Positions 11,052-57,499 of a stretch of 64,000 nt of DNA are shown here, in pieces. A program made the position numbers and the translations under genes. The notes beneath the pieces were generated by a model. The model saw only the letters and a program-made list of their open reading frames with translations, was not told the origin of the DNA and did not search any database. How positions within the stretch are numbered: position 1 is the first letter of the stretch; the number at the start of each line of letters is the position of its first letter. Origin of the DNA: Candidatus Falkowbacteria bacterium (GTDB lineage: Bacteria > Patescibacteriota > Patescibacteriia > Patescibacteriales > UBA12075); NCBI GenBank assembly GCA_043801965.1, contig JAZDLN010000011.1, positions 44,511 to 108,510 of the forward strand, in the 5' to 3' direction.

Positions 11052-11054
11052 ATT

Positions 11055-28598: not shown

Positions 28599-28634
28599 CA
28601 ATGGCGTTTTTTTCGTAATTAAAACCAAAAATGT

Positions 28635-31702
<3,068 letters not shown>

Positions 31703-41468: not shown

Positions 41469-41518
41469 ATTTATTAGCTTTTAGCTATGGGTGTCCCGAT
41501 AATGCCGGGACTGTTTTG

Positions 41519-41719
41519 TTATTTAGTTTTTTTAGCTTTTTTCGGCTTGATCGCTAGGACTTCCCGGCCTTTGTAAAAACCGCAAAACAGACAGGTTTCG
41601 TGCGATTTTACGGCTTGGCCGCATTTGGGGCATTTCGCTAAATTGCTTTTTTTAAGAGCGAGATGCGACCGTCTGCGCCGTTTAGCGCTTACTGGTCTTC
41701 TTTTTGGCGGAACTGGCAT
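41519..41719 (-). CDS. rpmF: 50S ribosomal protein L32
   Basis: MPVPPKRRPVSAKRRRRSH...CPKCGQ...H..C..CG.Y. Confidence 0.9.
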   Translation of the reverse strand: MPVPPKRRPVSAKRRRRSHLALKKSNLAKCPKCGQAVKSHETCLFCGFYKGREVLAIKPKKAKKTK

Positions 41720-42099
41720 ATTATGATCGTCGATTTGTGAATGTCGAATAGCCCGTTAGCTTGAACATTTCCAAATCAGGACATTTTATTATTAAAATTA
41801 CTTCTAATATACCTAATATAACGGAAAATTTATAAAAAGTCAAATGTTCCCGAATTATTAGTAAAATTACGGATATTCCCAGGATTTTATATTTCTCATT
41901 CTTCTTGCTTGTTGGCGCTTTTATCTCCCGTCAATCTAAATAATAATCAATAATACCTTCCATATTTTTCATAAGGCTAAATCATTATTTTTTTATAAAT
42001 AATAATTGACATTTTAAGAAAAATTATGTAATATTTAAAATTAAAAACAGCTTTGTTTTATTATTGTTCATCACAATCTAGCACAAACAGGGAGGTAAT

Positions 42100-42801: not shown

Positions 42802-42861
42802 AACGACGCTTAAGTTCGAAAAATATAATATTATTAATCTGCTCTTTTTGAAAAATAAAAC

Positions 42862-42890
42862 GCAGGGTCAAATAACCCTGCTTTTTGTTT
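42862..42890. terminator. bidirectional terminator
   Basis: gcagggt-caaata-accctgcttttt. Confidence 0.65.
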
Positions 42891-43082
42891 TTATCGACTT
42901 ATAAAGCCGCCCCATAAATTGCCGCATCTCGGGCATCGTTTCCAGTATACCCAGCCGTTTTCGGTATGGTTATAGATCCCGCGCCAATGGAAAAGGGCGC
43001 ATCTTAAGCTGCCTCTCCGAATCCATCGTACTGACAGGTATAGTCCTAGATAAAACGAGAAAATAATAATGAACGAATACAC
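42891..43082 (-). CDS. small hypothetical protein (TM helix plus CxxC)
   Basis: GTG start preceded by a strong RBS, aaggagg. Confidence 0.45.
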   Translation of the reverse strand: MYSFIIIFSFYLGLYLSVRWIRRGSLRCALFHWRGIYNHTENGWVYWKRCPRCGNLWGGFISR

Positions 43083-43115
43083 AGATTCCTCCTTCTTGCG
43101 TTGAAATTTCCAAAA

Positions 43116-44312
43116 TCAATAAATGAACATCGCGTCGCCGTAACTATAGAAACGGTATAAAGACTTTACGGCATGAGCATAGGCTCTGTCAATGTTGTCT
43201 TTGCCCGCGAAAGCCGAAACCAGCATTAAAAGAGTCGATTTCGGCAGATGAAAATTCGTGATCATGACATCGACGATCTTGAACTCGTAGCCGGGATAAA
43301 TAAATATGTCTACGTTTTTTTGAAAACCCTTAAATTGTTTTTCGTATTGAGTGTTTTGAAATTGATTATTGATTGGATATTGGATATTGGATATTGGATA
43401 TTCGGAAACCATAGCCTCAAGCGTGCGGGTCGAAGTGGTGCCTACGGTAATAATGCGTCGTCCCTGATGCTTCGCTAAATAAACGTTAGCCATGGTTTCG
43501 GCCGATACCTCGACCCATTCCGCATGCATTTTGTGATCAGTGATGATTTCCGCTTTGACCGGCGCGAAGGTGCCCAGACCCACGTGCAGCGTGACATATT
43601 CTATTTGTACGCCCTTCGCTTTTATCTTCTCCATCAATTCCGGCGTGAAATGCAGTCCGGCGGTCGGCGCCGCCACCGATCCGGTCTTATTTTTATCCGC
43701 GTAAATTGTTTGATACGATTTCTCGTCATTAATCAATTCGTTACGCGTTACGCGTTTTGCGTTACGCGAAATGTACGGTGGCAGCGGCGTCTGCCCGATT
43801 TTCTCCACGATCTTCATCATCTCCTCGCCCGCCTTATTGAATTCAACGGTAAAAGTACCGTCGCCGTTATTTTTTATTGCCAGCGCCTTAAGGCCGCCGT
43901 CAAATTCCACTTCTAAACCCTCTTTGCGCCGATGTCCCCCAACCAGGCAAATCCAGCGATCTCCCCTCGCCCGCGGCGAAGCCGGGGGAGAGGGGTCGGG
44001 GGTGAGGGCATGCACCAGAAAAACCTCAACACGCCCGCCCGTACCCTTCCGCTCCCCGATCAAGCGCGCTGGAAAAACTTTGGAATTATTCAAAACCAAA
44101 ACATCGCCGGTTCGCAAATAACCGACGATATCATAAAAATACTTGTCTTCAATTCCAGGCGCTCCCACCCCCTCTGTATCTCCCCCTCCGGCAGGGGGAG
44201 AAAAACGGCGTAATACCAAAAGCCGCGAGTGGTCCCGCGGTTCTACCGGCTCCTGAGCGATAAGCTCTTTGGGCAAATTGTAATCAAAATCGCTTAACTT
44301 CACATAACGCAT
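43116..44312 (-). CDS. queA: S-adenosylmethionine:tRNA ribosyltransferase-isomerase, carrying four in-frame repeat-derived insertions
   Basis: LSDFDYNLPKELIAQEP, PLPPYI, VAAPTAGLHFT, VTLHVGLGTF, ITVGTTS and NFHLPKSTLLMLVSAF...FYSYGDAMFI motifs. 398 aa versus the ~350 typical. Confidence 0.9.
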   Translation of the reverse strand: MRYVKLSDFDYNLPKELIAQEPVEPRDHSRLLVLRRFSPPAGGGDTEGVGAPGIEDKYFYDIVGYLRTGDVLVLNNSKVFPARLIGERKGTGGRVEVFLVHALTPDPSPPASPRARGDRWICLVGGHRRKEGLEVEFDGGLKALAIKNNGDGTFTVEFNKAGEEMMKIVEKIGQTPLPPYISRNAKRVTRNELINDEKSYQTIYADKNKTGSVAAPTAGLHFTPELMEKIKAKGVQIEYVTLHVGLGTFAPVKAEIITDHKMHAEWVEVSAETMANVYLAKHQGRRIITVGTTSTRTLEAMVSEYPISNIQYPINNQFQNTQYEKQFKGFQKNVDIFIYPGYEFKIVDVMITNFHLPKSTLLMLVSAFAGKDNIDRAYAHAVKSLYRFYSYGDAMFIY

Positions 44313-44370
44313 AGCGCATAACGCATAACGCTCTTTGTGCGTTACGCGTTATGCGTTCCACGTTACGCGT
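44303..44370. repeat. palindrome of TAACGCA / TGCGTTA 7-mers spanning the stop of one gene and the start of queA
   Basis: cataacgc atagcgca taacgca taacgc - tctttg - tgcgtta cgcgtta tgcgttc cacgtta cgcgt. Confidence 0.7.
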
Positions 44371-44935
44371 TCTCGGCCCGGTTCTTCTGCACCAGCTTGA
44401 TTATTATGTCCCGGATGTGGTCCGGATTCGGCACCTGGCGGAAACTGAAGCGCTCTTCCGCGGTACCGGCCGTCTGCACGTGCACGTCGCCGAATTTTAA
44501 TACCGTCGGGATAAAACCGTGCGTCTCGCTCGTCACGTCCTGGATGCGGAAAAGCTTGTGCTCGGCCACCACCCGCGAAAAAAAACCTCGCTGATCGATA
44601 TAGATTATCCGGCGGTTCGTTATTATCCACGAATCGAGATAATAATCAACGAAAGAAAAAAAGAAAAAAAGCCAAACAAAAAGATAGTAAGCGCTTGTCC
44701 CAAGGGTAATCAGGGGAAGGGAAACGGTACCGGCTAATACGGTGGCGTCATTATTTATCATCAGATAAAAAAACCCGACTGGCAGAACTAAAAGGACGGC
44801 GAATATAACGACGCGCTTGAAAATTATAAAAATATCGCGCCTGACGACACGGACGATCGATTCGTCTGGAAGTTTGTTGGGAAGATAATTAAGGGATAAC
44901 ATTTTAAACAATAAAATACTAAAGGTTAAAAACAA
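44363..44935 (-). CDS. membrane protein with bacterial PH (bPH_2, YdbS/YdbT-like) domain
   Basis: Two TM helices, then WIITNRRIIYIDQRGFFSRVVAEHKLFRIQDV...KFGDVHVQTAG. Confidence 0.65.
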   Translation of the reverse strand: MFLTFSILLFKMLSLNYLPNKLPDESIVRVVRRDIFIIFKRVVIFAVLLVLPVGFFYLMINNDATVLAGTVSLPLITLGTSAYYLFVWLFFFFSFVDYYLDSWIITNRRIIYIDQRGFFSRVVAEHKLFRIQDVTSETHGFIPTVLKFGDVHVQTAGTAEERFSFRQVPNPDHIRDIIIKLVQKNRAENA

Positions 44936-44948
44936 AAATTATTTTTTC

Positions 44949-45071
44949 TGTCATTTCGACTGGAGCGGAGCGGAAGGAGAAATCTTTAATATGCCGGAAA
45001 CCTTAATAATAATGTTCAACTGATACACAGAGTATTATAGATCTCTCCTCCCGCGGGTCGTCGAGATGACA
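44949..45071. mobile_element. MITE-like element with 12-bp TGTCATYTCGAC terminal inverted repeats
   Basis: tgtcatttcgac...gtcgagatgaca. Internal ggagaaatc / gatctctcc. Confidence 0.45.
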
Positions 45072-45078
45072 AAAACGT

Positions 45079-45345
45079 TTATTGAAACGGCATCGGCCTT
45101 TTAAAGGCGTCAAGCAATCCTTCGAAGAGCGAAATATTTATGTCCCATTCTAGCTGGTTAATATAATAAAACGAAACGGAAAGCATTACAACGGCCACGA
45201 CTAAGAAAAAAAACGTCGACAAAAACGTAAAAAAGGTCTTGAAGCCGAACTTGAGCATATGATAAAGACCGGCCAGGAAGAATATGGCCCAGAGCGCCAG
45301 AAAAGCGTAATAGATATATAGAAGTATTACTAAAGAAAAAGTCAT
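45079..45345 (-). CDS. small hypothetical membrane protein
   Basis: 88-aa ORF with 3 hydrophobic helices. Confidence 0.4.
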   Translation of the reverse strand: MTFSLVILLYIYYAFLALWAIFFLAGLYHMLKFGFKTFFTFLSTFFFLVVAVVMLSVSFYYINQLEWDINISLFEGLLDAFKRPMPFQ

Positions 45346-45374
45346 ACGATGCGTAACGATTCATTAAAAATTTT

Positions 45375-45512
45375 TAATTATCAATTTTCAATTTACAGTG
45401 AATTTCCAATTTTTTAATTTTTCAAATACCGGCTTATCGGCTTATGGCAATAAATAATTTAAATTGAAAATTTGATCATTGATTGAAAATTGTAAATTGA
45501 AAATTGTAAATT
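45375..45512. repeat. palindrome with arms of degenerate 7-mers (AATTTNC / GAAAATT)
   Basis: aattatc aattttc aatttac ... gaaaatt gtaaatt gaaaatt gtaaatt. The centre carries ccggcttatcggcttatgg. Confidence 0.75.
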
Positions 45513-45558
45513 ATAACCTGTTTCTTTTTTGAATATAACAAAAATATAAACCGGGGTA

Positions 45559-46620
45559 TTACGCATTACGCATTAAAGTCCCTTGTCCCGGTTTCTTTCT
45601 TCCCAGGTGTCCGTAAGCGAGGTCGGTCGCGAGCCTTCCCCGGGGAGAGCGGTCTAAAAACCCGAGCTGCATAAGATAGGGCTCGTACACGTCCTCGACC
45701 GTGGCCATATCCTCGCCGGTGGCGGCAGCGATGGTATTTAAGCCCACCGGGCCGCCTTTGAACTTGTCGATAATAAGCTCAAGGATCTTACGGTCGATCC
45801 AGTCAAGGCCGAGTTCATCGACATCAAGCATCTCGAAAGCGTCGCGGCAGTGCTCCGGGTTTATCGTGCCGTTGCCGCGGACGTCGCAATAATCCCGCGT
45901 CCGTTTTAAAAGGCGGTTAGCGACCCGAGGGGTGCGGCGGGACCGGCGGGCGATCTCCCGGGCGGACAGATCGTCAATGCCGATGGAAAGTATCCGGGCG
46001 CTGCGGTTAACTATCCGTTCGATATCGTCATGCTCGTAATAGTTAAGATGATAAACCATGCCGAACCGGTCCCGTAAAGGCGCGGAAAGCAAACTCATCT
46101 TCGTGGTCGCGCCGATGATCGTGAATCTGGGAAGATCGATCCGGAGCGTGCGCGCGCTTGGTCCTTTGCCGATGATAATATCAAGGGCGTAATCTTCCAT
46201 GGCCGGATACAGTATCTCTTCGATCGTTTTATTCAATCGGTGGATCTCGTCGATAAAAAGAATATCGCCCTCGGCAAGATTCGTGAGAATCGCTGCTAAG
46301 TCGCCCGACTTCTCGATGGCCGGTCCGCTCGTAATGCGGATATTGGTTCCGAGTTCGTTCGAGAGTATATGGGCGAGCGTCGTTTTTCCGAGTCCGGGAG
46401 CGCCGTATAAAAGGACATGCTCGATGGGCTCTCCCCTTTTTTTCGCGGCTTCGATCGCTATCCTTAAATTCTCTTTTACCTTTTCCTGTCCGATGTATTC
46501 CTCCAGTGTTTTCGGCCGCAATGTCAAATCAAGCCCCGAGTCCTCGGAACCGTTCTCTTTATTCGCGATAATGCGTTCTTTGTCGTTTTCCATATCTCTA
46601 TTGTAGCTATTTAAAGGCAT
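45559..46620 (-). CDS. ruvB: Holliday junction branch-migration helicase RuvB
   Basis: [19 protein letters not shown], Walker A GPPGLGKTT-like [19 protein letters not shown]. The last codons and the stop lie in ttacgca ttacgca 7-mers. Confidence 0.92.
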
Positions 46621-46629
46621 TTTGGCAAA

Positions 46630-46657
46630 TAAAAAACCCGGACTTTTGTGTCCGGGT
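46630..46657 (-). terminator. rho-independent terminator of the lipoprotein gene
   Basis: acccggac-ttttgt-gtccgggt, with a T-run on the minus strand. Confidence 0.65.
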
Positions 46658-46678
46658 GGATATTGTCGATCTCTGTTT

Positions 46679-47032
46679 TTACTTCGTTATTTTTGTCAGG
46701 CGGTGTTTTTGTTTGTCTATGTAAATATCATATGAGGCGTCCGTATCAAGTTTTATGACAACTTCTTCCGGGGCCTGCATCTCCCTGAACGGCCACCACA
46801 CTCCCGTACTTATAGAAATCAGTCTGATTATTTTTAATTCTCTTTTTTCATAACTGAATTCAGCTTTTTCGCAGGCTAAAACAATGTGATTATTTATCTC
46901 CCAATCAAGCAACCTCTCAACCGTTACAAAGCTTTTCGCGTTTATTTCTTTTTGCGGCAAAAACTCACTGTCATCGCCGCAGCCAACGCAAACAACAATT
47001 ATAAACGCAATTACTATAGCGAATGATCTCAT
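46679..47032 (-). CDS. small hypothetical lipoprotein
   Basis: Start moved to M28 (ATG at 47030-47032) behind RBS aaggaggg. [21 protein letters not shown] lipobox-like. Confidence 0.55.
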
Positions 47033-47135
47033 CAACACCCTCCTTATTGTTAATGAACAAAAAAAACATAACCGTTTTGCGATTATGCTAGCACAAAAAA
47101 ATGAAAAAGTCAATTTCCGCCGCCTGTCGCGCGCT

Positions 47136-47957
47136 TCACCTTACGTGCTCCGTGCTGTTGTCCGTCTTTCTCACTAAAGCCATCCTGACCATATTCTTGG
47201 TCTGCTCGGTAAAATCAGATTCAAGAATCCATCTTAAGAACTCGGGATCGTTTTCCGCCACCCAGGACAGAGATTTTCCCTGGTACTTGGAAAAAGCGAA
47301 ACAGGCCTCCCCCTTTTCCCAGTAAAATTTCCGGATATTATCCACCCGGAATTCGTCGTCCGGCTCGTGTATCCGGTTGATGAACCCCCAGTCCCTGACC
47401 TCATTATACCTTTCCACTTGCTTCATCAGGACTTCCGCCGCCGCTTCGGCGTATTCCATTATGTTCTTGCGGACGGTCAGGCGCTTGCGGCAATAATAGT
47501 CGTAAGCCGAAGCCAGGTTGGACGGAGCCATATAGTTATAGACCTTCTTCGAATCGATCACCTGCTTGCTGTTATAATCGAAGTCCATTCCCACCCGGAC
47601 GAATTCCCTTCGGAGGACCGGCAGATCGAAATCTAGGATGCTGAATCCTCCGTAATAACAGCCGTTGAACACATCCCAAAGCTCCTGAGCCTTGTCCCGG
47701 AAAGCGGGCTTATCGGCAACGTCTTCGTTCCTGATACCGTGGATCGTGGTCGCTTCCTCGGATATCGGCGTTTCCGGATTTAAAAGCACATTCTCCTTCT
47801 TTATCTTTCCGTCTCCCCATATTTTAATATAGGCGATCTCGATGATCTTATCGGAGCTCATTGATATCCCGGTCGTTTCAATATCGAAAATAACGAGCGG
47901 CTTGTCGAGTTTAAGCAGTTTATGGATCTTTTTGTATTCCCCACCCATTGTGAACAT
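47136..47957 (-). CDS. DEDDh 3'-5' exonuclease (DnaQ-like) with C-terminal extension
   Basis: ExoI motif VIFDIETTG. The C-terminal KYQGKSLSWVAENDPEFLRWILESDF resembles the domain often fused to such exonucleases. Confidence 0.7.
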   Translation of the reverse strand: MFTMGGEYKKIHKLLKLDKPLVIFDIETTGISMSSDKIIEIAYIKIWGDGKIKKENVLLNPETPISEEATTIHGIRNEDVADKPAFRDKAQELWDVFNGCYYGGFSILDFDLPVLRREFVRVGMDFDYNSKQVIDSKKVYNYMAPSNLASAYDYYCRKRLTVRKNIMEYAEAAAEVLMKQVERYNEVRDWGFINRIHEPDDEFRVDNIRKFYWEKGEACFAFSKYQGKSLSWVAENDPEFLRWILESDFTEQTKNMVRMALVRKTDNSTEHVR

Positions 47958-47997
47958 AATAAAAAATTATAATTTAAATCTTTTATACCCTTTAGGC

Positions 47998-48092
47998 ACA
48001 AAATGTAAAATGATAATGAAAAATTTATAATTAAAACGTTGCGGTATTTTGCATTTTAAACTGTCATTTTACATTTTGAGATTTGCATTTTT
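47998..48092. repeat. palindrome with arms of AAAATGN / ATTTTNC 7-mers
   Basis: caaaatg taaaatg ataatga ... attttgc attttaa actgtc attttac attttga gatttgc. Confidence 0.65.
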
Positions 48093-48600
48093 AATTAAAA
48101 AACTCTATGGTTTTCCGTATCTCTTCCCGTATCCCCAATATGCAATCATAATTCTCTACTTCCAGGGCGTTTACCCAGGCGTAATCCGTAAAGGCACCAG
48201 CCTCTAATTTAACCTCGCCGCTTTCGTATTTTGCAGCGAATTTGACTAGGACGACCGGAATGCCGTCCGGACGGACGAAAGCCACGCTGTTTATGTAAAC
48301 AAGATTATCGCCGATCTTAACGCCGGCTTCTTCCCGCGCTTCCCGCTTCAATAAATCTTCCACGGCGTTCTCGAAATCGAATACGTCGCCGTTCATGCGC
48401 GTGGGCTTGGACATATCCAGATTATCCCATTCGAGTTTGCCGCCTGGCACGCAGTATTTTCCCGGATGAACCTTTTCGCGGTCGCTTCTTTTTAATATCA
48501 GACAGCGGCCATCCTCTTCGCGGTAGATCACGACATTGGCGACAAAATAAAAAAGCTTGTCAGGCTTGGCGTTGTCTAAGCTTATTTTTTCCGCGGGCAT
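48091..48600 (-). CDS. NUDIX hydrolase
   Basis: Nudix box GGKLEWDN...LLKREAREEAGV. Confidence 0.8.
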   Translation of the reverse strand: MPAEKISLDNAKPDKLFYFVANVVIYREEDGRCLILKRSDREKVHPGKYCVPGGKLEWDNLDMSKPTRMNGDVFDFENAVEDLLKREAREEAGVKIGDNLVYINSVAFVRPDGIPVVLVKFAAKYESGEVKLEAGAFTDYAWVNALEVENYDCILGIREEIRKTIEFFN

Positions 48601-48674
48601 GAATTTTGGTTTATCCTTAAAATAAATATATCACACTAACATTATAACACAGAAAGCTAGGAAAAAACACAAAT

Positions 48675-48700
48675 AAAAAATACCCTACGGAGTATTTTTT
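48675..48700 (-). terminator. weak AT-rich hairpin/T-run after tRNA-Arg
   Basis: aaaaaatacc-ctac-ggagtatttttt. Confidence 0.4.
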
Positions 48701-48705
48701 ATTTG

Positions 48706-48777
48706 TGCTCTCGGTTGGAATCGAACCAACATTACAAGTTCCGGAAACTTGCGTCCTATCCATTGAACGACGAGAGC
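48706..48777 (-). tRNA. tRNA-Arg (anticodon CCG)
   Basis: Reverse complement GCTCTCGTCGTTCAATGGATAGGACGCAAGTTTCCGGAACTTGTAATGTTGGTTCGATTCCAACCGAGAGCA. Anticodon loop TTCCGGA. Confidence 0.9.
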
Positions 48778-48791
48778 GTTTTTATCATTGT

Positions 48792-48892
48792 ACTTGCGTC
48801 CTACTTGCCCGCCGAAGTCCCGACGCTTCGGGACGCAGGTGGGTCCATTGTCCGCCAAAGGAGGATCAGCCTCTGGCTGAAACGACGAGAGC
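48792..48892 (-). pseudogene. tRNA-Arg 5'-half copy 1 (positions 1-31) with 30- and 40-nt hairpin insertions in the D arm
   Basis: acttgcgtccta[40 nt]tccattg[30 nt]aacgacgagagc is collinear with 48749-48777. Confidence 0.6.
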
Positions 48893-48912
48893 ATAAAATA
48901 TTATATTGTAAA

Positions 48913-49008
48913 TGCGTCCTACTTGCCCGCCGAAGTCCCGACGCTTCGGGACGCAGGCGGGTCCATTGTCCGTCAAAGGCGGGGAGCCTCTGGCTGAAAC
49001 GACGAGAG
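48913..49008 (-). pseudogene. tRNA-Arg 5'-half copy 2, tandem duplicate of copy 1
   Basis: Same architecture about 120 nt further on, with a few substitutions (ggtggg to ggcggg, gaggatcagcc to gcggggagcc). Confidence 0.6.
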
Positions 49009-49155
49009 TGTTGTTTATTTTTTTGCTTGCGCCCTGCCCGACCGCATAAAGGCGTAAAAAACGAATATGCTCCCATATTACATGTTTTGACGGAATTTGT
49101 CCAGTGTCGGAAATATGCTATAATAAGAATAATCTAAGTAAATTAAATAAAAAAT

Positions 49156-49560
49156 ATGCCTTTACTAGAATGGAAAGACGACTATAGCGTAGGTGTCGAA
49201 GAATTAGACGATCAGCACAAAAAAATGTTCGGGCTGATAAACGGCCTGCATGATAATATGCAGACAAAGATTATGGATAAAAACGACCTGGAAAAATTAT
49301 TGTCCGAATTGGCCGCTTACGGCAATAATCATCTCACCACCGAAGAAAAATATTTCACGCTTTACGGTTATCCGCTAAAAGAAGAACATGAAAAAGCTCA
49401 TGGATTTTACCGGGAAAAGATCAAAAACTTTCTAGCGGGAGAAAGCAACCATTTCGCGTCATTCGAAATAATAGATTTTCTGGAGGACTGGTGGCTTGGG
49501 CATATCATAACCATGGACAAAGCCTATGAGCCGTTTTTTAAGGAAAAAATAAAATCATGA
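49156..49560 (+). CDS. hemerythrin-like metal-binding protein
   Basis: LLEWKDDYSVGVEELDDQHKKMF opening, with later H...E...H and WLGHI motifs. Confidence 0.85.
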   Translation: MPLLEWKDDYSVGVEELDDQHKKMFGLINGLHDNMQTKIMDKNDLEKLLSELAAYGNNHLTTEEKYFTLYGYPLKEEHEKAHGFYREKIKNFLAGESNHFASFEIIDFLEDWWLGHIITMDKAYEPFFKEKIKS

Positions 49561-50150
49561 AGATCGTATTCGCCACCCATAACCCGGGCAAACTCGTTGA
49601 GATGAAAAAAATGCTCCCCAGCTTCGAGGTTTTAAGCGCTTCCGAGGCCGGAGTATCTGAAGACGTGGAGGAAGACGGGGAAACTTTTGCCGCCAACGCC
49701 TTGAAAAAAGCGCGTTTCGTCGCGTCTAAAACCGGCGAGTGGGCGGTAGCGGACGATTCCGGGCTGTGCATCGACGCGTTAGGGGGAGAACCCGGCGTCT
49801 ACACCGCCCGCTGGGCTCTTGGCCGCGACCTGGTCGAATATACCCTGGAACGAACCAAGGATGTCCCGGAAAAAAAACGCGGCGCGCGCTTCGAAAGCGC
49901 CGTTGCCATAGTTTCACCGGCCGGTTCAGAAAAAGTTTTCACGGGAGTGGTCCGGGGAGAGCTCGCCCTCGCTCCCCGCGGACAGGCGCTCCCCAAACTT
50001 CCTTATGACGTTATTTTTATTCCGGAAGGATATAAAAAAACCTTCGCCGAAATGAACGAAGATGAAAAAAATTCCTTAAGCCACCGCGGCCAGGCCTTCC
50101 GGCTTATGCGGGCTTATCTGGAAAACGCTTTACCGGAAAATATTGGCTGA
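49557..50150 (+). CDS. rdgB: non-canonical purine NTP pyrophosphatase (RdgB/HAM1)
   Basis: KIVFATHNPGKLVEM, DDSGLCIDALGGEPGVYTARW and SHRGQAF motifs. 4-nt overlap with the hemerythrin gene. Confidence 0.88.
   Translation: MKIVFATHNPGKLVEMKKMLPSFEVLSASEAGVSEDVEEDGETFAANALKKARFVASKTGEWAVADDSGLCIDALGGEPGVYTARWALGRDLVEYTLERTKDVPEKKRGARFESAVAIVSPAGSEKVFTGVVRGELALAPRGQALPKLPYDVIFIPEGYKKTFAEMNEDEKNSLSHRGQAFRLMRAYLENALPENIG
50099..50132 (+). repeat. 34-bp direct repeat, left copy (inside rdgB 3' end)
   Basis: ccggcttatgcgggcttatctggaaaacgcttta, identical to 52018-52051. Confidence 0.85.
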
Positions 50151-50186
50151 AAAAATTTAACGTCCGCTATTCTACTAGGATTTTAA

Positions 50187-50226
50187 CAAAAAAACCACCC
50201 ATATTTATGGGTGAATTTGTTTTTTA
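50187..50226. terminator. bidirectional terminator between rdgB and the ALDH gene
   Basis: aaaaaacc-cacccat-attt-atgggtg-aatttgtttttt. Confidence 0.6.
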
Positions 50227-51804
50227 TTAACTTTGTATCAGGCCGCTTATCGGAGGAAAAGGACCGATATCACGGATAATACAACGCGTGGCGCTCCAGG
50301 TCTGGATGATGGCTTCGGGCGTACCGATGCCGGCGCCGCGCGGGTCGCCGCAGGGTCCGAACCAATGGTTTTGCGGAGCGCCGGTCGTGCGAGCCCGGAG
50401 ACCGGCGTAGGTCGTGCCGTTAACTGTCTCTCCCAGGATTTTACCGATAAACTCCTGATCATTAGAGACTACGGCCGCCGTCAGGTGGTTTTTCATCCGC
50501 TCGCAGGCAAACATGATCATATCCAATTCGGACTCTTTGTAGGTAGTCACGACCTGGACCGGTCCGAAAACCTCAGTGGTCACAAGTTTAAATTTGTCGG
50601 GATAAATAATCTCAACCAGAGGAACGTACACGGCCGTCGGCTCAATGGCGCCGTAGCAGGCCGGGATGCTGTGGCCCCTTAGGGGTTTACCGCCGAACAG
50701 GATTTTTACTCCCGAAATAGCGGCCAGCTTGCTGATATGCTCAAGCATCGCTTCGGTCGTCCGGGTTAGAACCGGCCCGATTGTCAAGTTTTCCAGACTT
50801 CTTTGCCCGGCAAGCGCCTTGAGACGGGCGAAAAAAACGTTCGGGCCGCCGGCTAATTTCTCCGGCACGAATAAGATTGATTGGGCGGAACATTTCTGTC
50901 CGCTGGCCGCGTAGGCGTCCTGGTCGCATTGCCAGGCGATATAGGGAAGCGCTTCCGCTGGGATATCGGCGCCTAAAATCTTCCAGTCGAACCCGGCGTC
51001 TTCTATTCGGATCTTGCCGTTAAGCATTTTGGCCAGTTTTTCGGCGACCGTGCTTGAACCGGTAAACTGAGTCAGACGCAAATCATCTTTGGCTTCGCGC
51101 AATAGATTATTCATGGTTTTGCCGTCGCAGTGTATTAAATCCACGTCCGTCATGGGCAGGCCGCAGAAATGGAGCAGGCGTAAAAACTGTTCGATTACCA
51201 CCGAAACCTTGGTCGCGGCCTTGACCAGCGGACGGTTGCCCATGTATAGGGCGCCCATCATATGAAGCGCCGGAATCTCCATCGGAAAATTAAAAGGCGC
51301 GATGATCGCGACCGGACCATAGGGCCAGCGGAAATGCTGCGGCTGTTGCCCGGCGTGATCCCCAGGGTCAATGCTGCCGCGCGCCAAAAACCGAACCTGG
51401 TCGCCGCTAAAATTTTTTAAAAACTGGGCGGTAACCGTTACTTCGCCGAGGCACTGCTTATATGACTTGGGCATGACCGACTGGATCAGGCGGGCAAAAT
51501 AATCCGCTACGGCCGCGTCTTCGAGCGTCGCGGCGACGCGGAAAGAAACCTGCGCCAGCATAAGATAGCGCTCCACGTTCTTAAAGGGGTTATGCAGTCC
51601 GCTTTTGGGGCAGGATTTAAGCCCATTAATAAACGACCTAAGCTCGGAAACCCCGGTATTAGGATATTTAAGCATGGGCTCGCCGTTCAAAGGATTTACG
51701 AGCGTGGCGTAGCGGGCCGCACCCGTCCATTTTCCGTTAACCAGGTTTTGAAGCTTTTGTTTTCTTGACTCCAGATCTTTTAAAAAATCACCGATCTTAT
51801 TCAT
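50227..51804 (-). CDS. aldehyde dehydrogenase family protein, 1-pyrroline-5-carboxylate dehydrogenase-like
   Basis: FTGSSTVAEKL and catalytic GQKCSAQS motifs. 525 aa. Locally GC-rich, with many overlapping frame ORFs. Confidence 0.7.
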   Translation of the reverse strand: MNKIGDFLKDLESRKQKLQNLVNGKWTGAARYATLVNPLNGEPMLKYPNTGVSELRSFINGLKSCPKSGLHNPFKNVERYLMLAQVSFRVAATLEDAAVADYFARLIQSVMPKSYKQCLGEVTVTAQFLKNFSGDQVRFLARGSIDPGDHAGQQPQHFRWPYGPVAIIAPFNFPMEIPALHMMGALYMGNRPLVKAATKVSVVIEQFLRLLHFCGLPMTDVDLIHCDGKTMNNLLREAKDDLRLTQFTGSSTVAEKLAKMLNGKIRIEDAGFDWKILGADIPAEALPYIAWQCDQDAYAASGQKCSAQSILFVPEKLAGGPNVFFARLKALAGQRSLENLTIGPVLTRTTEAMLEHISKLAAISGVKILFGGKPLRGHSIPACYGAIEPTAVYVPLVEIIYPDKFKLVTTEVFGPVQVVTTYKESELDMIMFACERMKNHLTAAVVSNDQEFIGKILGETVNGTTYAGLRARTTGAPQNHWFGPCGDPRGAGIGTPEAIIQTWSATRCIIRDIGPFPPISGLIQS

Positions 51805-52017
51805 CTTTCTCCTCCCGATACGTCTTTATGGCTCTTAAATAATTATAAATGTGCGCGATAAATTATTTACAAACTTAACATACGCGCCGCTCGGCGTCAA
51901 TCTCAGCGCGCAACTACCGTAAATAAAAACAAGCCGCCTAAACGTCTGTTTTATTCTTTACGTATGTTTACTTAAATAAATTATTTTTTATAAAGACGCA
52001 TACACTCCAGCGAGTTG

Positions 52018-52051
52018 CCGGCTTATGCGGGCTTATCTGGAAAACGCTTTA
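52018..52051 (+). repeat. 34-bp direct repeat, right copy (orphan rdgB 3' end)
   Basis: Identical to 50099-50132. Read in the rdgB frame it continues aaa taa, giving ...YLENALK-stop. Confidence 0.85.
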
Positions 52052-52072
52052 AAATAAAATAGCTTAATTAAT

Positions 52073-52924
52073 TTAAGCAACCATTGCTTTGGCCGGGGCT
52101 TCTGTCTCGGATTTTCTATTTTTAGCATACGCGCCCATTTCGCCTCCACTCATCTGATTATTGGCCTCTTTTCTTAATTTTCTTATAAACATGTCTAAGT
52201 CTGTATATTTTTTTTCTACCTCCGGATTTATATATGATATAAAAAAACTAAGTGTGCCCATAATATTATGCAATTTCGGCACGTTGTCTGATTTTGCGGA
52301 CATTCCTAGGCGTATAGCCTGCCGCAATTTTTCCACCGACATCTTATCAAGGGCCACATGTCTTATCCGATCATCCAAAGAGCGTCTTTCAAATGCTTCT
52401 TTGCCGTCAGGCGAAAGTTTTTCTTTAAAAGCGGAAATATCGTCTTCTGTTACATCTCCTTCCGCGATCATAAAATCCAGAATCAACTCTTCCGGATTAA
52501 CCGGATTTTCTTCTTCAAAGTATTCTTCTTTATGCCTTGGATTGGGATGGTGTATACAGTTCTCCCCCCACTCCTTAACGAGCCTTTTAAGATTCCGGAA
52601 TTTTCCGTTTCCGTCCGTAATGCTTTGATCCAAAAAATTCAGGGCATCGCTAATGGTATTCATGGAAAACGTTTGAGCACCGTCCGAAGTTAAAAACGGT
52701 ATCAGATGTTTAAGTTCCTCTTCCGAAAATTTAAACAAAACCGCGTATTCGGCCTGCTTATCCTGATCGATCATGTCAAAGCGTTTCTGGCGCTGAGGAA
52801 TTAAAGACATTCTTAGATTTTTAATATCTTCCGGCGTGACCTTGGTTTTTAAAATCGCAAAGTCCGGCGCTTTGTACGGAGCCGGTTCCTGGCTATTTAA
52901 AGTTATTTCTCTAATATTTTCCAT
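52073..52924 (-). CDS. hypothetical protein
   Basis: 283-aa ORF with no recognisable motif. Confidence 0.5.
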   Translation of the reverse strand: MENIREITLNSQEPAPYKAPDFAILKTKVTPEDIKNLRMSLIPQRQKRFDMIDQDKQAEYAVLFKFSEEELKHLIPFLTSDGAQTFSMNTISDALNFLDQSITDGNGKFRNLKRLVKEWGENCIHHPNPRHKEEYFEEENPVNPEELILDFMIAEGDVTEDDISAFKEKLSPDGKEAFERRSLDDRIRHVALDKMSVEKLRQAIRLGMSAKSDNVPKLHNIMGTLSFFISYINPEVEKKYTDLDMFIRKLRKEANNQMSGGEMGAYAKNRKSETEAPAKAMVA

Positions 52925-53099
52925 ATTTTTGAATTAAAATTTTTAGCACCATTCTAGTATTTAATTTTAGCAAATTTTAATGATTTTGTCAAATGATTGC
53001 GGAGATTTAAATTGACACTTATTTAATTTTATGATATTGTATATTATTATTTATTTAAATTGTTCCTTAAAGACTAAATTATAGCGAAAGGATAACATA

Positions 53100-53513
53100 A
53101 TGAAAACCGCTTATATGTGGCTCTTGTGTTCTATTACCGCGACCGGCTTCGCGGGGTGGGCCATAGTATTCCAAAAAGCCGGAATACCTCCTTACTGGCG
53201 TCCGCTTCTTCTTATGCTTAGCGGACTGCTGCCGGCTCTCATACCCCTCTTAGCGGCGCGAAATATTTCTCCATTATTCGATAAATGGTCGTTTTGGAGC
53301 GTGCTGGCGATCGTTACGGCCCTTCTAAACGGCGTCGCCGTAATAACGTACGGCTATGCGGCTAAAAACTGGGAATTATCGCGAGTCGTGCCGATCGTCC
53401 TGACCCTTACCGTCATCTTATCCATTATCGGCGGACGATATTTACTGGGTGAACCGATCACGATCAATAAGATAATCGGCCTTTTCGTGGCAATTTACTT
53501 CTTTTCGAGATAA
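53100..53513 (+). CDS. small DMT/EamA-like 4-5 TM membrane protein
   Basis: 137-aa hydrophobic ORF. RBS aaaggat. Confidence 0.5.
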   Translation: MKTAYMWLLCSITATGFAGWAIVFQKAGIPPYWRPLLLMLSGLLPALIPLLAARNISPLFDKWSFWSVLAIVTALLNGVAVITYGYAAKNWELSRVVPIVLTLTVILSIIGGRYLLGEPITINKIIGLFVAIYFFSR

Positions 53514-53524
53514 GGAGGAAAAAC

Positions 53525-53845
53525 ATGATCGTAAGATGGCTCGTTTATTCACTGGTCGTTTGGGGTGTGTGCTCTCTATCGCCCGGAATCAGCGTCAAAA
53601 ATTTCTGGACCGCGATGCTTGTATCAGCCCTTATGGGGGTCATTAACCCGTCCGTTAAGCCTGTGCTCATTCTCATAACTTTGCCCGTTACCATCATAAC
53701 AATGGGCCTGTTCTTGTTCGTAATAAATGCCTTGATGCTTATGCTGGCATCCACCGTTGTTAATGGCTTTATTATAGCGAATTTTTGGGCGGCGCTACTT
53801 GCGTCACTGGTAATTTCCATCGTTTATAACTTAGCAATTGATTAA
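53525..53845 (+). CDS. phage holin family IV / YvlD (DUF360) membrane protein
   Basis: PGI.V..FWTA.L.A...G.IN...KP.L...TLP.TI.T.GLFLFVINALML pattern. RBS aaggagg. Confidence 0.7.
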   Translation: MIVRWLVYSLVVWGVCSLSPGISVKNFWTAMLVSALMGVINPSVKPVLILITLPVTIITMGLFLFVINALMLMLASTVVNGFIIANFWAALLASLVISIVYNLAID

Positions 53846-53906
53846 ACAAAAGCCCTTGAAAAATCAGGGGTTTTTTATTTTGTATTAGCTATAAAATAAT
53901 TTTCCC

Positions 53907-53935
53907 TTGACAATTTTTATATATTGTGTTATGAT
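53907..53935 (+). promoter_or_regulatory. near-consensus promoter for the 59-aa ORF
   Basis: TTGACA, 17-nt spacer, TATGAT. Confidence 0.5.
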
Positions 53936-53973
53936 TACATTATTAAAAACTAACCCAAAAAAAGGAGGCCAAG

Positions 53974-54153
53974 ATGGCCGAAGAATTCAAAAAAATCGAA
54001 ATCGTTCAGGTGCCGGACCGTAGCGGTCCGGTAAAAATCAAAATCGTGGACGAGATCTGGGTCGGCACGACTGCCCGGGTGTCTTTCCCGGTCTATGATG
54101 GTGGTCCATACCGGACCATCCCCAATATGACCGGGCACGCCATGTGCGCCTAA
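53974..54153 (+). CDS. 59-aa hypothetical protein, missed by the 60-aa ORF cutoff
   Basis: RBS aaaggagg 5 nt upstream of the ATG. Translation MAEEFKKIEIVQVPDRSGPVKIKIVDEIWVGTTARVSFPVYDGGPYRTIPNMTGHAMCA. Has its own promoter and terminator. Confidence 0.55.
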   Translation: MAEEFKKIEIVQVPDRSGPVKIKIVDEIWVGTTARVSFPVYDGGPYRTIPNMTGHAMCA

Positions 54154-54174
54154 CCTGCCTCTCGCCAACATTCA

Positions 54175-54228
54175 CCCCCGCGAAACGATCCAAAACAACG
54201 GAAAGCTTCGACGGGGGCTTTCTTTTTT
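54175..54228 (+). terminator. hairpin plus T-run
   Basis: cccccgcgaa...ttcgacggggg followed by ctttctttttt. Confidence 0.5.
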
Positions 54229-54239
54229 CGATTTATCCC

Positions 54240-54268
54240 TTGACAATAATGTTAGAATAATATAACAT
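54240..54268 (+). promoter_or_regulatory. promoter for the DUF2178-HTH pair
   Basis: TTGACA, 17-nt spacer, TAACAT. Shares the cccttgacaat context with the promoter at 53907. Confidence 0.4.
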
Positions 54269-54315
54269 ATAAATATAGTTAGAAATATATAACTTTAATA
54301 ATAACCAAAAAATTT

Positions 54316-54702
54316 ATGACCAAAAAACATTATACCGGCTGCCGCCTGGTTATAATTATGGCCTTAAGCGCGGCCATCGCCGTCAGTATCAATGCCGCCA
54401 ACTATTACCTGCCCCTAATTTTCGTGATAACCGCTATGGCCGGACTGCACTATTGTCGCAAACAGCTCAAGACCGATGATGTTATGGCGGACGAACGTGA
54501 TTATAAAATTGCCGGCGACGCCGCTCGTTATACGATTACGATCTACGGAGGTCTGGGAGCGATCGGCACTTTCGTTTTCATGGCCGTTTCCGATAAAAGC
54601 GGGTGGCTCTACGACCTGAGTCAATATTCGGCCTATAGCGTCTGCTTCCTTATGCTCTTAAACGCCTTTTTATTCAAATACCTGTCTAACCGCGGAAAAT
54701 AA
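54316..54702 (+). CDS. DUF2178-like membrane protein
   Basis: 4 TM helices with a central [16 protein letters not shown] segment. Paired with a short XRE regulator, as is usual for this family. Confidence 0.55.
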
Positions 54703-54704
54703 TT

Positions 54705-54899
54705 ATGAAAAACAAGATCAAGGAACTGCGTACTCTTTATAACCTGACCCAGGAAGAATTGGCTCGCCGGGTAGGCGTCCGGCGGGAAACGATTCTGTTT
54801 TTGGAACAGGGTAAATACAATCCCTCGCTTAAACTCGCACATGACGTCGCCCGTGAACTAAAGACCAGCATCGACGAATTATTTGATTTTGAAAATTAA
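54705..54899 (+). CDS. XRE-family short HTH transcriptional regulator
   Basis: [43 protein letters not shown]. Confidence 0.85.
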
Positions 54900-54954
54900 G
54901 GCGGGCTGAAATTAAAAAGGAACGTTTTTTCACGTTCCTTTGTTTTTTATGTTT

Positions 54955-55137
54955 TTATTCGTCTAACCAGCTTTTACCGCACCGCGTGCAAAAACATCCG
55001 AACATGATCTGCGCAATATGCCGTCCGTTGCCGTGTTTTTTCTGTTCGCATTTTTCCTGGCATTCCTTACAGGCTCCGTCATTTTTATTGTCAATCGTCT
55101 TACCGCAAAGACAGCAATTTCCCCTCTGGCTTTCCAT
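54955..55137 (-). CDS. small cysteine-rich (zinc-ribbon-like) protein
   Basis: CCLCGK...CKEC...CTRCGK. Confidence 0.35.
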   Translation of the reverse strand: MESQRGNCCLCGKTIDNKNDGACKECQEKCEQKKHGNGRHIAQIMFGCFCTRCGKSWLDE

Positions 55138-55142
55138 CTAAA

Positions 55143-55736
55143 TTATCCCCCACTTGTTATTTTGCGGTCTTTTTCAATTTTCAAAATAACGTCTCTTAAT
55201 AACGATAATTTTTCGGCTACCTGTTCGCTCGCCGCCCGAAGCCAAGCGCCTTCTTCCCGTTTTTTCATGTATTCAATCTTTTCTGTATCGCGGCGGTAAA
55301 CCGGCTTAAGGCCATAGCCCTTTATGATTTTATCGCGCCAATCGCCGGGCACATGTTCCGGTTTTAAAGTTTCAATTTTAAGCTGGGCGATAATTTTAGC
55401 CGCGTCCAATTCGTCCAGGTGATCGATCAGTTTCGCTATGTCGCTGTTTAAGCTGGCGTCCAGTTCGCCGTTTTCGCAATCCACTTCTACGGTACAAAAG
55501 GGGCCATTAGCCCGACCGGAAGAAAAAATCATCCAATAGCCATCCCGATAGGCGCGGCCCTTGATCGGGGAAAATCCGCCGCGCCCGTCCGCCATTAACG
55601 CTAACCAGGGGATTTTTTGCCACAAATCCTTCTGAACCCGGCAATAATCCCTGATTCCGCGCTCAAGCTCTTTTTCTGTTTCTTTAGATTTCTTTCGCAA
55701 ACCCGATAACTCTTTTTTGATTATTTGATTTTTCAT
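55143..55736 (-). CDS. hypothetical protein
   Basis: 197-aa ORF with no motif recognised. Confidence 0.45.
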   Translation of the reverse strand: MKNQIIKKELSGLRKKSKETEKELERGIRDYCRVQKDLWQKIPWLALMADGRGGFSPIKGRAYRDGYWMIFSSGRANGPFCTVEVDCENGELDASLNSDIAKLIDHLDELDAAKIIAQLKIETLKPEHVPGDWRDKIIKGYGLKPVYRRDTEKIEYMKKREEGAWLRAASEQVAEKLSLLRDVILKIEKDRKITSGG

Positions 55737-55942
55737 TTCCCGCTCCTTGCTTTAACGACTTAGCTAAAAAATTTTTTGGTTTTTCAAGGTTCGTTTATAA
55801 TATGATTTAATTATATAATTTGAAAATATTATAGTAAATTTTTATATACAAACTATGATAATTTTTTATAAATAATCAAAATATTTGTTTATTTTTAGAT
55901 AATTAGTTATACTACAAGTAGTAAATATTTTACGACAACCAT

Positions 55943-56674
55943 ATGATTGACTATAAGATAATATCCGATTTGGGATTAACAGATAAAGAAACGGCTCTTT
56001 ACATGGCTTGTCTCAAGTCTGGACCGTCCGGGGCTTCCGAGCTGGCCAAAACTACCGGCATTCAACGGACCCATATTTACGATCTGGCCGAAAAACTCGC
56101 GGACAAAGGTTTCCTGACCCAAACCAGGAAAGAGGATAAAAGATTATTCGCGGCCAGATCCCCGGAAGAGATACTCGCGGCCAAACGGATCGAACTGAAA
56201 AAATTCGCGGATAGCATTCCGGAACTTGAAAAATTGGCGAGCCGGAAGAATAACAGACCGAAGATCGTTTATTACGAAGGCGGCCGGGAGCTTAACAAAA
56301 TGATGGAGGGGTCGATCTGGGGCGAGGGCGAATGCCTGATCTGGGGCGATGACCTGTTCTACACCAAAGACGACAAAGAATATCAGAGAAGAAACATCGC
56401 GCAAAGGCTTAAAACCAATACCCGCTGCCGGGTCCTGGCCGCCGTCTCTAACGCGACCCTTGAATCGCAAAAAAAAGATAAAAAAGAGTTAAGGGAAACA
56501 AGGCTCCTGCCTCGGAACTTGTTCGAATCCAGGGTGAACCTGACCGTATACAAAAATAAAACCATGGTCGCCAACCATGCCAAGGATTTCGGTTTCGCGG
56601 TGGAAGACGAGGATTTCGCCAATACCCTGAAGGCGATCTTCGAGCTTATCTGGAAAAGTGGACGAGTTATTTAA
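55943..56674 (+). CDS. TrmB-family transcriptional regulator (second copy)
   Basis: LTDKETALYMACLKSGPSGASELAKTTGIQRTHIYDLAEKLADKGFL. Confidence 0.75.
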   Translation: MIDYKIISDLGLTDKETALYMACLKSGPSGASELAKTTGIQRTHIYDLAEKLADKGFLTQTRKEDKRLFAARSPEEILAAKRIELKKFADSIPELEKLASRKNNRPKIVYYEGGRELNKMMEGSIWGEGECLIWGDDLFYTKDDKEYQRRNIAQRLKTNTRCRVLAAVSNATLESQKKDKKELRETRLLPRNLFESRVNLTVYKNKTMVANHAKDFGFAVEDEDFANTLKAIFELIWKSGRVI

Positions 56675-56755
56675 AATTGCAGTATATTTTAATCGATTTC
56701 TTTATCTTCGGCAATAATGCTATAATAATAAAACATAAAAATTAACAGACGATCT

Positions 56756-57220
56756 ATGGCAAAAAATAAAAAACGCGTGGCAATCTTCTCTTTTACCTGC
56801 GACGAAGGTTGTTCAATTTATCTTATAGAAATATTCAACAAAAAACTCGTGGAATGGCTTGCTAAAATGGAACTGGCTTATTTCCTATCCATCAAGGATA
56901 AGGTCGAAATAAAAGATTTCGATATAAGCCTGGTAGAGGGGGTCATTAGCACGGCCAAAGACAGGAAAGAAGTCGAAAAAATCCGGGCCGCGAGCAAAAT
57001 CCTAATCGCCATGGGCTCTTGTGCCGCTACCGGCCAACCGTCCGGGCAGAGAAATCTATTCAATGTCGAACAGGCCGCGGAAATAAAAACCGAACTCGAG
57101 GCGAACGATTATCTGCCTAAATGCCTGTCTATCAAAGAAGCGGTCAGGGTGGATGACGAGGTCCTGGGCTGTCCGATCGACGAAAATAAATTCATCGAAG
57201 TATTCGAAAAATACTTATAA
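56756..57220 (+). CDS. [NiFe] hydrogenase small subunit, minimal (single-cluster) type
   Basis: 154 aa, with four Cys in FTCDEGCS, MGSCAATG and LGCPID contexts, as in group 3 delta / NuoB-like subunits. Confidence 0.7.
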   Translation: MAKNKKRVAIFSFTCDEGCSIYLIEIFNKKLVEWLAKMELAYFLSIKDKVEIKDFDISLVEGVISTAKDRKEVEKIRAASKILIAMGSCAATGQPSGQRNLFNVEQAAEIKTELEANDYLPKCLSIKEAVRVDDEVLGCPIDENKFIEVFEKYL

Positions 57221-57289
57221 TCAATAAAACCGAACTGCCCCTTGAAATATTTTATGATAAAAATATATGTTTATTTTTGCCGATAAAGA

Positions 57290-57422
57290 TTAATTTTCAA
57301 TTATCAATGACCAATTTTCAATTTTCGTGTTTTTCGCTCAATTACATAGTTATGCCGGATAGTAAATCGTTAAAAATTATTAATTTAAAAATTGATTGAA
57401 AATTGTTAAATTGATAATTTGG
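57290..57422. repeat. 7-mer-armed AT-rich palindrome between the two hydrogenase genes
   Basis: aattttc aattatc aatgacc aattttc aattttc ... aaaaatt gattgaa aattgtt aaattga taattt. Confidence 0.7.
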
Positions 57423-57499
57423 AAGTTCATTAAAATACGGATAACATGAAAAAAATATCATGCATTTAAAAAACATATAAAAATCTTCAAATAACTCAT

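Follow-up and report, generated by a model that had tools for sequence, protein, structure and literature searches.

Integrase-mediated islands and other integrative elements enter bacterial chromosomes at the 3′ ends of tRNA, tmRNA and conserved genes and come to lie between two attachment (att) sites, attL and attR; a gene 3′ end as target, with its reading frame preserved, is typical of such elements. Transposable elements also duplicate their target, and in bacteria these duplications measure about 2–15 bp. A third described route, Campbell-type single-crossover integration of a circle, predicts the order X-R-insert-R-Z, in which a single copy of the shared sequence borders the insert at either end. 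At 34 bp, a shared sequence has a length seen among att identity blocks and lies at the lower limit for homologous recombination, near the minimum for recombination of the RecA type. Here we describe a locus in a 64-kb stretch of DNA from Candidatus Falkowbacteria bacterium (assembly GCA_043801965.1, contig JAZDLN010000011.1, positions 44,511 to 108,510; hereafter the window) where a perfect 34-bp direct repeat, made from the 3′ end of the conserved gene rdgB, encloses a gene for an aldehyde dehydrogenase (ALDH). We are confident that the locus records a derived horizontal insertion with target duplication in the window's lineage; this confidence attaches to the event and not to its mechanism.

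The locus resembles integrative elements in its exact repeats of tens of bp on each side, which derive from the target, in the conserved housekeeping gene whose 3′ end was hit, in the replacement end supplied to that gene and in a cargo that is absent from sister genomes. It differs from them in having no integrase or other recombinase gene in or beside the insert, a cargo of a single gene in 1.9 kb, a repeat without recombinase-arm symmetry, no att copy elsewhere, a site that is not reused in 84 other rdgB loci, and a replacement tail (PENIG) that does not reproduce the original one. With transposable elements it shares an exact target duplication with sharp boundaries around a foreign segment. 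However, 34 bp is several-fold longer than their duplications, and the window holds no transposase, no terminal inverted repeats of the insert and no other copies of the insert ends, so that neither the transposase with terminal inverted repeats nor the 2–15-bp duplication of an insertion sequence or transposon is found. Campbell-type integration predicts the observed order exactly, but here both the circle and whatever supplied its 34-mer are hypothetical. Nor does the locus show the marks of an integron gene cassette, an imperfect attC palindrome at its end and an intI/attI platform close by: neither the repeat nor the leader forms a significant hairpin, the window has no integrase, and the ALDH segment carries its own leader and terminator.

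A 34-bp target duplication at the 3′ end of rdgB

The locus was compared with two relatives. The single close relative to emerge from an RdgB scan of species-representative genomes is Candidatus Falkowbacteria RIFOXYA2_FULL_47_19 (L001), and a protein search with RdgB yielded a 4.2-kb Logan contig of a third lineage, P0123 (L098; 83% identity). The features of the locus, in window coordinates, are these:

49156–49560, plus strand: hemerythrin-domain gene, overlapping the start of rdgB by 4 nt (region compared in L098: 2535–3017).
49557–50150, plus strand: rdgB/Ham1, non-canonical purine nucleoside triphosphate pyrophosphatase, 197 aa (PF01725, E 2e-56; TIGR00042).
50099–50132, plus strand: left repeat copy, encoding (F)RLMRAYLENAL of rdgB and ending on a codon boundary; identical to L098 3559–3592.
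50133–52017, no strand assigned: inserted segment of 1,885 bp, without counterpart in L001 or L098 by blastn.
50195–50214, no strand assigned: hairpin CACCCATATTTATGGGTG with T-runs on both strands; terminator scan matches on both strands.
50227–51804, minus strand: predicted ALDH12-type pyrroline-5-carboxylate (P5C) dehydrogenase, 525 aa, full length (PF00171, PDB 6D97).
51805–52017, minus strand: ALDH leader and upstream region, 213 bp, AT-rich and borne by the insert, with a strong Shine-Dalgarno sequence GGGAGGAG (complement of 51809–51816).
52018–52051, plus strand: right repeat copy, apparently the former 3′ end of rdgB, now orphaned; the copy and the tail behind it align with the ends of rdgB in L098 and L001.
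52052–52072, plus strand: probable remnant of the ancestral rdgB tail and a tiny intergenic spacer (in-frame K-stop; 5-nt gap against L098; 0/1000 shuffles against L001).
52073–52924, minus strand: convergent hypothetical gene, 283 aa, without Pfam or NCBIfam match; the apparent ancestral immediate neighbor of rdgB.

The 34-mer CCGGCTTATGCGGGCTTATCTGGAAAACGCTTTA occurs in the window exactly twice, at 50099–50132 and 52018–52051, both times on the plus strand. No further site matches it at up to three mismatches, and two matches were reached in 0 of 100 shuffles. The copies are identical at 34 of 34 positions and start 1919 bp apart; the perfect direct repeat on which the original prediction was built is thus exact, and unique in the window.

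How far the duplication extends was judged from the flanks. Upstream, the flanks of the two copies are unrelated (487/1000 shuffles score equally well). Downstream, the 94 nt 3′ of the left copy are significantly similar neither to the sequence 3′ of the right copy (148/1000 shuffles) nor to the rdgB tail of L001 (158/1000), whereas the sequence 3′ of the right copy is homologous to the L001 rdgB tail and the end of the downstream gene (0/1000). Since tail homology is confined to the right copy and the upstream flanks are unrelated, the insert is read as 50133–52017 plus a 34-bp duplication, for a net gain of 1,919 bp counting one repeat copy. By these alignments the duplication is 34 bp with sharp edges, or 33 bp if its first C matches by coincidence. 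A longer, degenerate duplication (44 nt at 91% by repeat search; 62 nt at 84% by blastn) was rejected, the tails taken alone being non-significant (148/1000, as above).

Empty sites in two relatives

Window positions 40896–58791 are collinear with L001 at 74–93% nucleotide identity (blastn), and the two share the gene order exonuclease, NUDIX, tRNA-Arg, hemerythrin, rdgB, convergent hypothetical gene, EamA and holin-like gene. In L001 the stops of rdgB (8597) and of the convergent gene (8602; gene 8602–9411) are separated by 4 bp, and there is no ALDH. Window positions 50126–52018 have no counterpart there, and the high-scoring pairs (HSPs) that flank them overlap on L001 8544–8569, that is, by 26 bp. 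L098 likewise has an empty site, with rdgB abutting the convergent gene (3613 and 3619) at a distance of at most 5 bp. The left window HSP ends at L098 position 3592 and the right one starts at 3559, an overlap of exactly 34 bp, and L098 carries the identical 34-mer (100%) once, precisely at this overlap. Two empty sites and an exact 34-bp overlap therefore support the insertion into the rdgB 3′ end with duplication of 34 bp that had been proposed from the window's sequence. The same proposal named a duplicated arrangement common to all relatives as the outcome that would contradict it, and L001 and L098 are both empty. It had also foretold what an empty site should look like: rdgB directly followed by the homologue of the gene at 52073, without ALDH, is what both relatives have, but neither has the ENALK-stop ending foretold for rdgB.

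In nucleotide sequence L098 shares approximately 74–80% identity with the window and with L001 alike, these two being 83–93% identical to each other, and it is the more distant of the window's two relatives. The hemerythrin gene, which makes a second difference in gene content at this locus, is present in the window and L001 and absent from L098. Because it lacks this shared gene and is the more distant from both, L098 is read as the outgroup, which would make the empty site ancestral and the insertion derived in the window's lineage after its split from L001. An ALDH gene near rdgB was seen in none of 79 other genomes. Other insertions and deletions between the window and L001 have longest common flanking substrings of 6–9 nt, and the ALDH insert is the only one in 18 kb to be flanked by a long repeat. 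One of the other differences concerns a 144-aa open reading frame (ORF; 46636–47179) with an N-terminal hydrophobic stretch and no Pfam match, opposite which L001 has only about 90 bp (5660–5752), with no flanking repeat and a longest shared string of 9 nt. The region aligns in L098, and the difference is probably a deletion in L001.

The event can be read as follows. At the ancestral locus, rdgB and the convergent hypothetical gene stood 4–5 bp apart. A 1,885-bp segment comprising the ALDH gene, its ribosome-binding leader and a bidirectional terminator then entered the last codons of rdgB, duplicating 34 bp. The left copy stayed in rdgB with a PENIG tail, while the right copy and the old tail were left as an orphaned remnant.

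The two ends of rdgB

The product of rdgB belongs to the family by its score against TIGR00042 (160.3, cut-off 145.35), its PF01725 match spans residues 3–186, and it is 86% and 83% identical in amino acid sequence to the L001 and L098 orthologues, respectively. Its C-terminus reads ...RLMRAYLENALPENIG-stop, and the right repeat copy read in the same frame gives ...ENALK-stop; both the ...ENALPENIG-stop on the left and the ...ENALK-stop on the right are in the sequence as the original prediction had them. The final five codons (PENIG) and the stop, 50133–50150, come from the insert. Because the Ham1 match ends at residue 186 and the insertion replaces only what follows residue 192, rdgB is likely to have remained functional.

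The RdgB proteins of both relatives have 198 aa, ending ...ENALNKNKIT-stop in L098 and ...EKISDQKKLA-stop in L001. In alignment, the orphaned tail of the window equals the L098 tail minus 5 nt within an A-rich run, and putting those 5 nt back would yield ...ENALNKNKIA-stop. Given these 198-aa ends and the 5-nt gap, ENALK-stop does not appear to be the ancestral C-terminus: the ancestral gene probably ended ...ENALNKNKI(A/T)-stop, and ENALK-stop is probably a frameshifted or decayed remnant, or a lineage-specific variant, of ...ENALNKNKIA-stop. The idea that the right copy marks the ancestral gene end thus survives the comparison, while the particular terminus first assigned to it does not.

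The ALDH12-type cargo

Between the repeat copies lie, as originally described, a terminator (50195–50214) and an oppositely oriented 525-aa ALDH ORF (50227–51804). The hairpin reads as a bidirectional terminator, brought in by the insert, that would serve the convergent rdgB and ALDH genes. The ALDH gene is co-directional with the gene at 52073–52924 and situated downstream of it, and its transcription may come from read-through from that 283-aa gene or from its own AT-rich leader. A consensus scan called no sigma-70 promoter in the leader (51805–52017), which also has no significant RNA fold (z -0.5) and no Rfam family. The non-coding parts of the insert contain no significant structured RNA or small ORFs, other ORFs in the insert being at most 38 aa.

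Residues 34–467 of the ALDH match PF00171 (Aldedh, E 1.6e-38). PDB 6D97 (maize ALDH12) matches across residues 16–518 with E 7.8e-201 and is the sole PDB sequence below E 1e-20. The FTGSS, IEDAGFDWK (EDAG) and GQKCSAQS (GQKCSA) motifs, named after PMC10888605, align with 6D97, so that the catalytic Cys and Glu and the NAD-binding motif are conserved. Plant ALDH12A1 proteins are about 62% identical to the window's ALDH and score about 700 bits, and homologues from Patescibacteria and groundwater metagenomes are 60–70% identical. Bacterial P5C dehydrogenase and PutA models of NCBIfam score 58–97 bits, far under their cut-offs, and no NCBIfam equivalog reaches its cut-off. By sequence, then, the ORF is predicted to be an ALDH12-type P5C (glutamate-semialdehyde) dehydrogenase, nearer to ALDH12 than to P5C dehydrogenases of the ALDH4 or PutA type, which sharpens the P5C-dehydrogenase-like identity first given to it. 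Compared with described ALDH12 enzymes it keeps about 62% identity over its full length together with FTGSS, EDAG and GQKCSA, and differs in being a bacterial, leaderless 525-aa form with no NCBIfam equivalog above cut-off and with an activity that is predicted. According to a statement in PMC10888605 that cites Korasick et al., ALDH12 is known from bacteria besides plants and protists, and its occurrence in a bacterium is therefore not new in itself.

In the source metagenome-assembled genome (MAG), the identical ALDH protein, MFH0891418.1, is adjacent to RdgB, MFH0891417.1, under consecutive accessions. Among 5.8 billion protein clusters there is no ALDH homologue at 70–100% identity outside this MAG (the best is 70%), and the sampled close relatives are accordingly without an ALDH orthologue. 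A neighbor-joining tree places the ALDH inside a prokaryotic and metagenome clade, apart from plants. Four ALDH homologues whose loci were examined sit in four unrelated neighborhoods, none of them beside rdgB, and none of the four loci has flanking repeats or shares non-coding flanks. At one of the homologues, on a groundwater contig (L097), an RVT_1 reverse transcriptase and a bAvd gene (8142–9530) lie 0.6 kb away; this pairing suggests a diversity-generating retroelement.

The composition of the ALDH gene compares with that of all window genes (mean ± sd) as follows:

GC: ALDH 0.541; all window genes 0.463 ± 0.052.
GC at third codon positions (GC3): ALDH 0.636; all window genes 0.539 ± 0.084.
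Synonymous-codon log-likelihood: ALDH -1.062; all window genes -1.058 ± 0.068.

The ALDH gene had been called GC-richer, which is true in a weak sense against the window mean, but rdgB itself has a GC content of 0.549. Codon usage had been suggested as a check on foreignness, and by that check the gene is not compositionally foreign. We set composition and codon usage aside as a signal of horizontal gene transfer, as values in the native range neither support nor refute it. Two other genes of the window deviate more in composition than the ALDH gene does: a DUF559 endonuclease-like gene (20223–20585, minus strand; GC 0.34) and a Fic-domain gene (36642–37985, minus strand; GC 0.38). The values of the ALDH gene point either to a donor of similar composition, such as another Patescibacterium, or to a gene resident long enough to have adapted. 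As the nearest homologues are Patescibacteria-type proteins and codon usage is native-like, we infer that the donor may have been another organism of that type.

How the segment may have entered

Our preferred mechanism, held tentatively, is Campbell-type integration. A small circular DNA bearing the same 34 bp would have integrated by a single crossover, leaving one shared copy on each side, and the crossover would have been catalyzed by a site-specific recombinase acting in trans or by host homologous recombination over very short homology. We put this model first because 34 bp is too long for the usual transposase cut, yet is expected from a crossover between circle and chromosome. The insertion point, at the 3′ end of a conserved gene whose reading frame was kept, is counted in favor of such a Campbell or att mechanism. 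Neither a recombinase nor terminal inverted repeats nor another att-like site came to light, so that the mechanism can only be inferred.

Several observations weigh against this account. Only two relatives underlie the comparison, both of them metagenomic, and exact-protein look-ups with rdgB, ALDH, the 283-aa gene and hemerythrin found no strain of the window's species. The composition of the ALDH gene gives no independent sign of foreign origin. Pfam domains of integrases, serine recombinases or transposases are missing from the insert and from all 53 ORFs of the window, and the 34-mer has no inverted-repeat substructure, symmetry or significant fold. A 21-mer scan of viral contigs found no attP-like second core of the 34-mer, and blastn of the insert against plasmid and phage collections gave no match. 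In metagenome contigs, matches to the 34-mer core are rdgB orthologues or chance only: a 20-mer scan brought up L085 and L089, which belong to the L001 species, along with two distant rdgB genes and some unrelated matches due to chance. Finally, none of 84 other rdgB loci has a duplicated 3′ end of its own, so that the site is not a recurrent integration hot spot among loci in which close relatives are thinly sampled. One candidate from these scans agrees with the core at 26 of 27 nt but falls within an unrelated 634-aa ORF (...FMRAYLENALG...; L088 4642–4668 and L094 13626–13652) from a soil organism of high GC content; it was judged a coincidence and rejected.

A staggered cut is the next explanation to consider. 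Here, nicks 33–34 nt apart would have been made in the target, a linear foreign fragment joined to the ends and the gaps filled in, by an unknown transposase- or integrase-like enzyme in trans or in the course of break repair. The sharp duplication boundaries on both sides and insert ends unrelated to the target speak for it, and the incoming DNA need not carry the 34-mer, for which no second source was found. However, 34 bp is much longer than the duplications of about 2–15 bp made by known bacterial transposable elements, no terminal inverted repeats join the insert ends, neither the insert nor the window encodes a transposase, and no similar insertion or deletion separates the window from L001. 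On this evidence we consider a staggered cut rather unlikely.

Template switching, or microhomology-mediated break-induced replication, would have a strand leave the chromosome after ...GCTTTA, copy foreign DNA and re-enter 34 nt upstream. Such an event can produce a duplication of arbitrary length without a dedicated enzyme, and since the insert and the repeat both start with CCGG, a circular donor, or one that went on with CCGG, could have offered a 4-nt microhomology for re-entry. Nevertheless, this microhomology is very short and evaluable at a single junction, a foreign template would be needed at the fork, and no other such event is seen in 18 kb of comparison with L001; all this makes template switching an unlikely source of the insert.

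A more far-reaching idea is that the 34-mer is the att site of an undescribed, integrase-less single-gene cassette of Patescibacteria, a circle of about 1.9 kb mobilized in trans and targeting the rdgB 3′ end. If true, this would explain the lone ALDH12 genes found in differing neighborhoods of each Patescibacteria genome examined. We think it improbable.

An assembly artefact, in which an ALDH gene from another molecule or organism was threaded in through a shared 34-mer, deserves mention as the window comes from a MAG read by its assembly alone and the repeat length is near common small k-mer sizes. A foreign molecule, however, would itself need the rdgB 34-mer of this lineage, and the codon usage of the ALDH gene fits the window's genes; for these two reasons an artefact is very unlikely. 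Moreover, the insert provides an in-frame tail and a terminator that suit the locus, rdgB and ALDH have consecutive accessions in the deposited MAG, and final assembly k-mers usually exceed 34, so that both junctions would presumably need read support.

The least probable explanation, which we dismiss, is that the ALDH gene and its repeats are ancestral and that L001 and L098 each lost the gene by recombination between the repeats: such a deletion would recreate exactly the observed empty site, but two independent precise losses would be required, one of them in the outgroup, the repeats would still need an earlier insertion, the 198-aa rdgB tails of the relatives match the window's right-hand remnant and not the PENIG tail, and a non-coding copy is unlikely to have stayed 34/34 identical over more than 20% nucleotide divergence.

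Three further candidates were tried and rejected. Retroposition of an ALDH transcript does not fit an insert that extends about 60 nt past the T-run of the terminator and has no tail; ligation of a restriction fragment at CCGG would not yield the duplication; and CRISPR- or casposon-type integration involves repeats of similar length, but here there is no array and no Cas1, and the insert is 1.9 kb.

Other features of the window

A sequence similar to part of the repeat had been reported at the center of a palindrome. It exists, one base off the position first given (45429–45447, not 45430–45448): CCGGCTTATCGGCTTATGG lies at the center of an AT-rich intergenic inverted repeat (about 45360–45520) beside ruvB. 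The supposed kinship with the 34-mer looks like chance, and we rejected it. GGCTTAT is spaced differently in CCGGCTTATCGGCTTATGG than in the repeat, there is no match between the two at up to two mismatches, the enrichment of GGCTTAT in the window is only about 2-fold (22 observed, 11 expected), and the palindrome of L001 is without the motif. The inverted repeat that occupies this position in L001 (4402–4621) is a different one (CAAGGATACAAGATACAAG / CTTGTATCCTTGTATCTTG); judged from this pair of sequences, the structure near ruvB appears conserved and its sequence not.

Directly upstream of tRNA-Arg(CCG) (48705–48777) are two tandem units of about 117 bp (48787–49025), read on the minus strand. 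Each unit starts with the first 12 nt of the tRNA (GCTCTCGTCGTT), holds the D-loop motif CAATGGA and a conserved GC hairpin GTCCCGAAGCGTCGGGAC, and ends with TAGGACGCA. L098 has one such unit, whose 5′ end co-varies with the acceptor stem of its own tRNA (CACCCGTCGTT). The units are not called by ARAGORN, match no Rfam family and have a fold z-score of -1.5.

On the minus strand, 28483–31701 holds a 23S rRNA gene (3,068 nt, against a 2,925-nt model) followed by a 5S rRNA gene; because no 16S rRNA gene lies in the 64-kb window, the rRNA operon appears unlinked. At 56756–58795 on the plus strand, adjacent ORFs resembling the small subunit (Oxidored_q6) and the large subunit (NiFeSe_Hases) of NiFe-hydrogenase are conserved in L001.

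What the insertion means for the organism

As an example the locus is clean but ordinary: events of this kind are known, and no new system is revealed; the clean footprint of horizontal gene gain that was originally claimed stands on those terms. Its significance would grow only if the repeat turned out to serve repeatedly as an attachment site. Its value is one of resolution: target site, insert limits, duplicated bases and ancestral state are all defined to the single base pair in a bacterium of the candidate phyla radiation. How reduced, uncultivated genomes acquire genes is poorly documented, which makes such a footprint useful as an example.

For the metabolism of the organism, the proline genes of the same window give the context. 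A proA-proB-proC cluster (9092–11828, plus strand) encodes glutamate-5-semialdehyde dehydrogenase, glutamate 5-kinase and P5C reductase, with proA and proB above their NCBIfam cut-offs and proC just below; no proline dehydrogenase was seen in the 64-kb window. As proA, proB and proC are encoded alongside it, the acquired ALDH would act on an intermediate that the organism already makes. The cargo would thereby add the last step of proline and P5C catabolism, which suggests selection on the balance of glutamate, P5C and proline.

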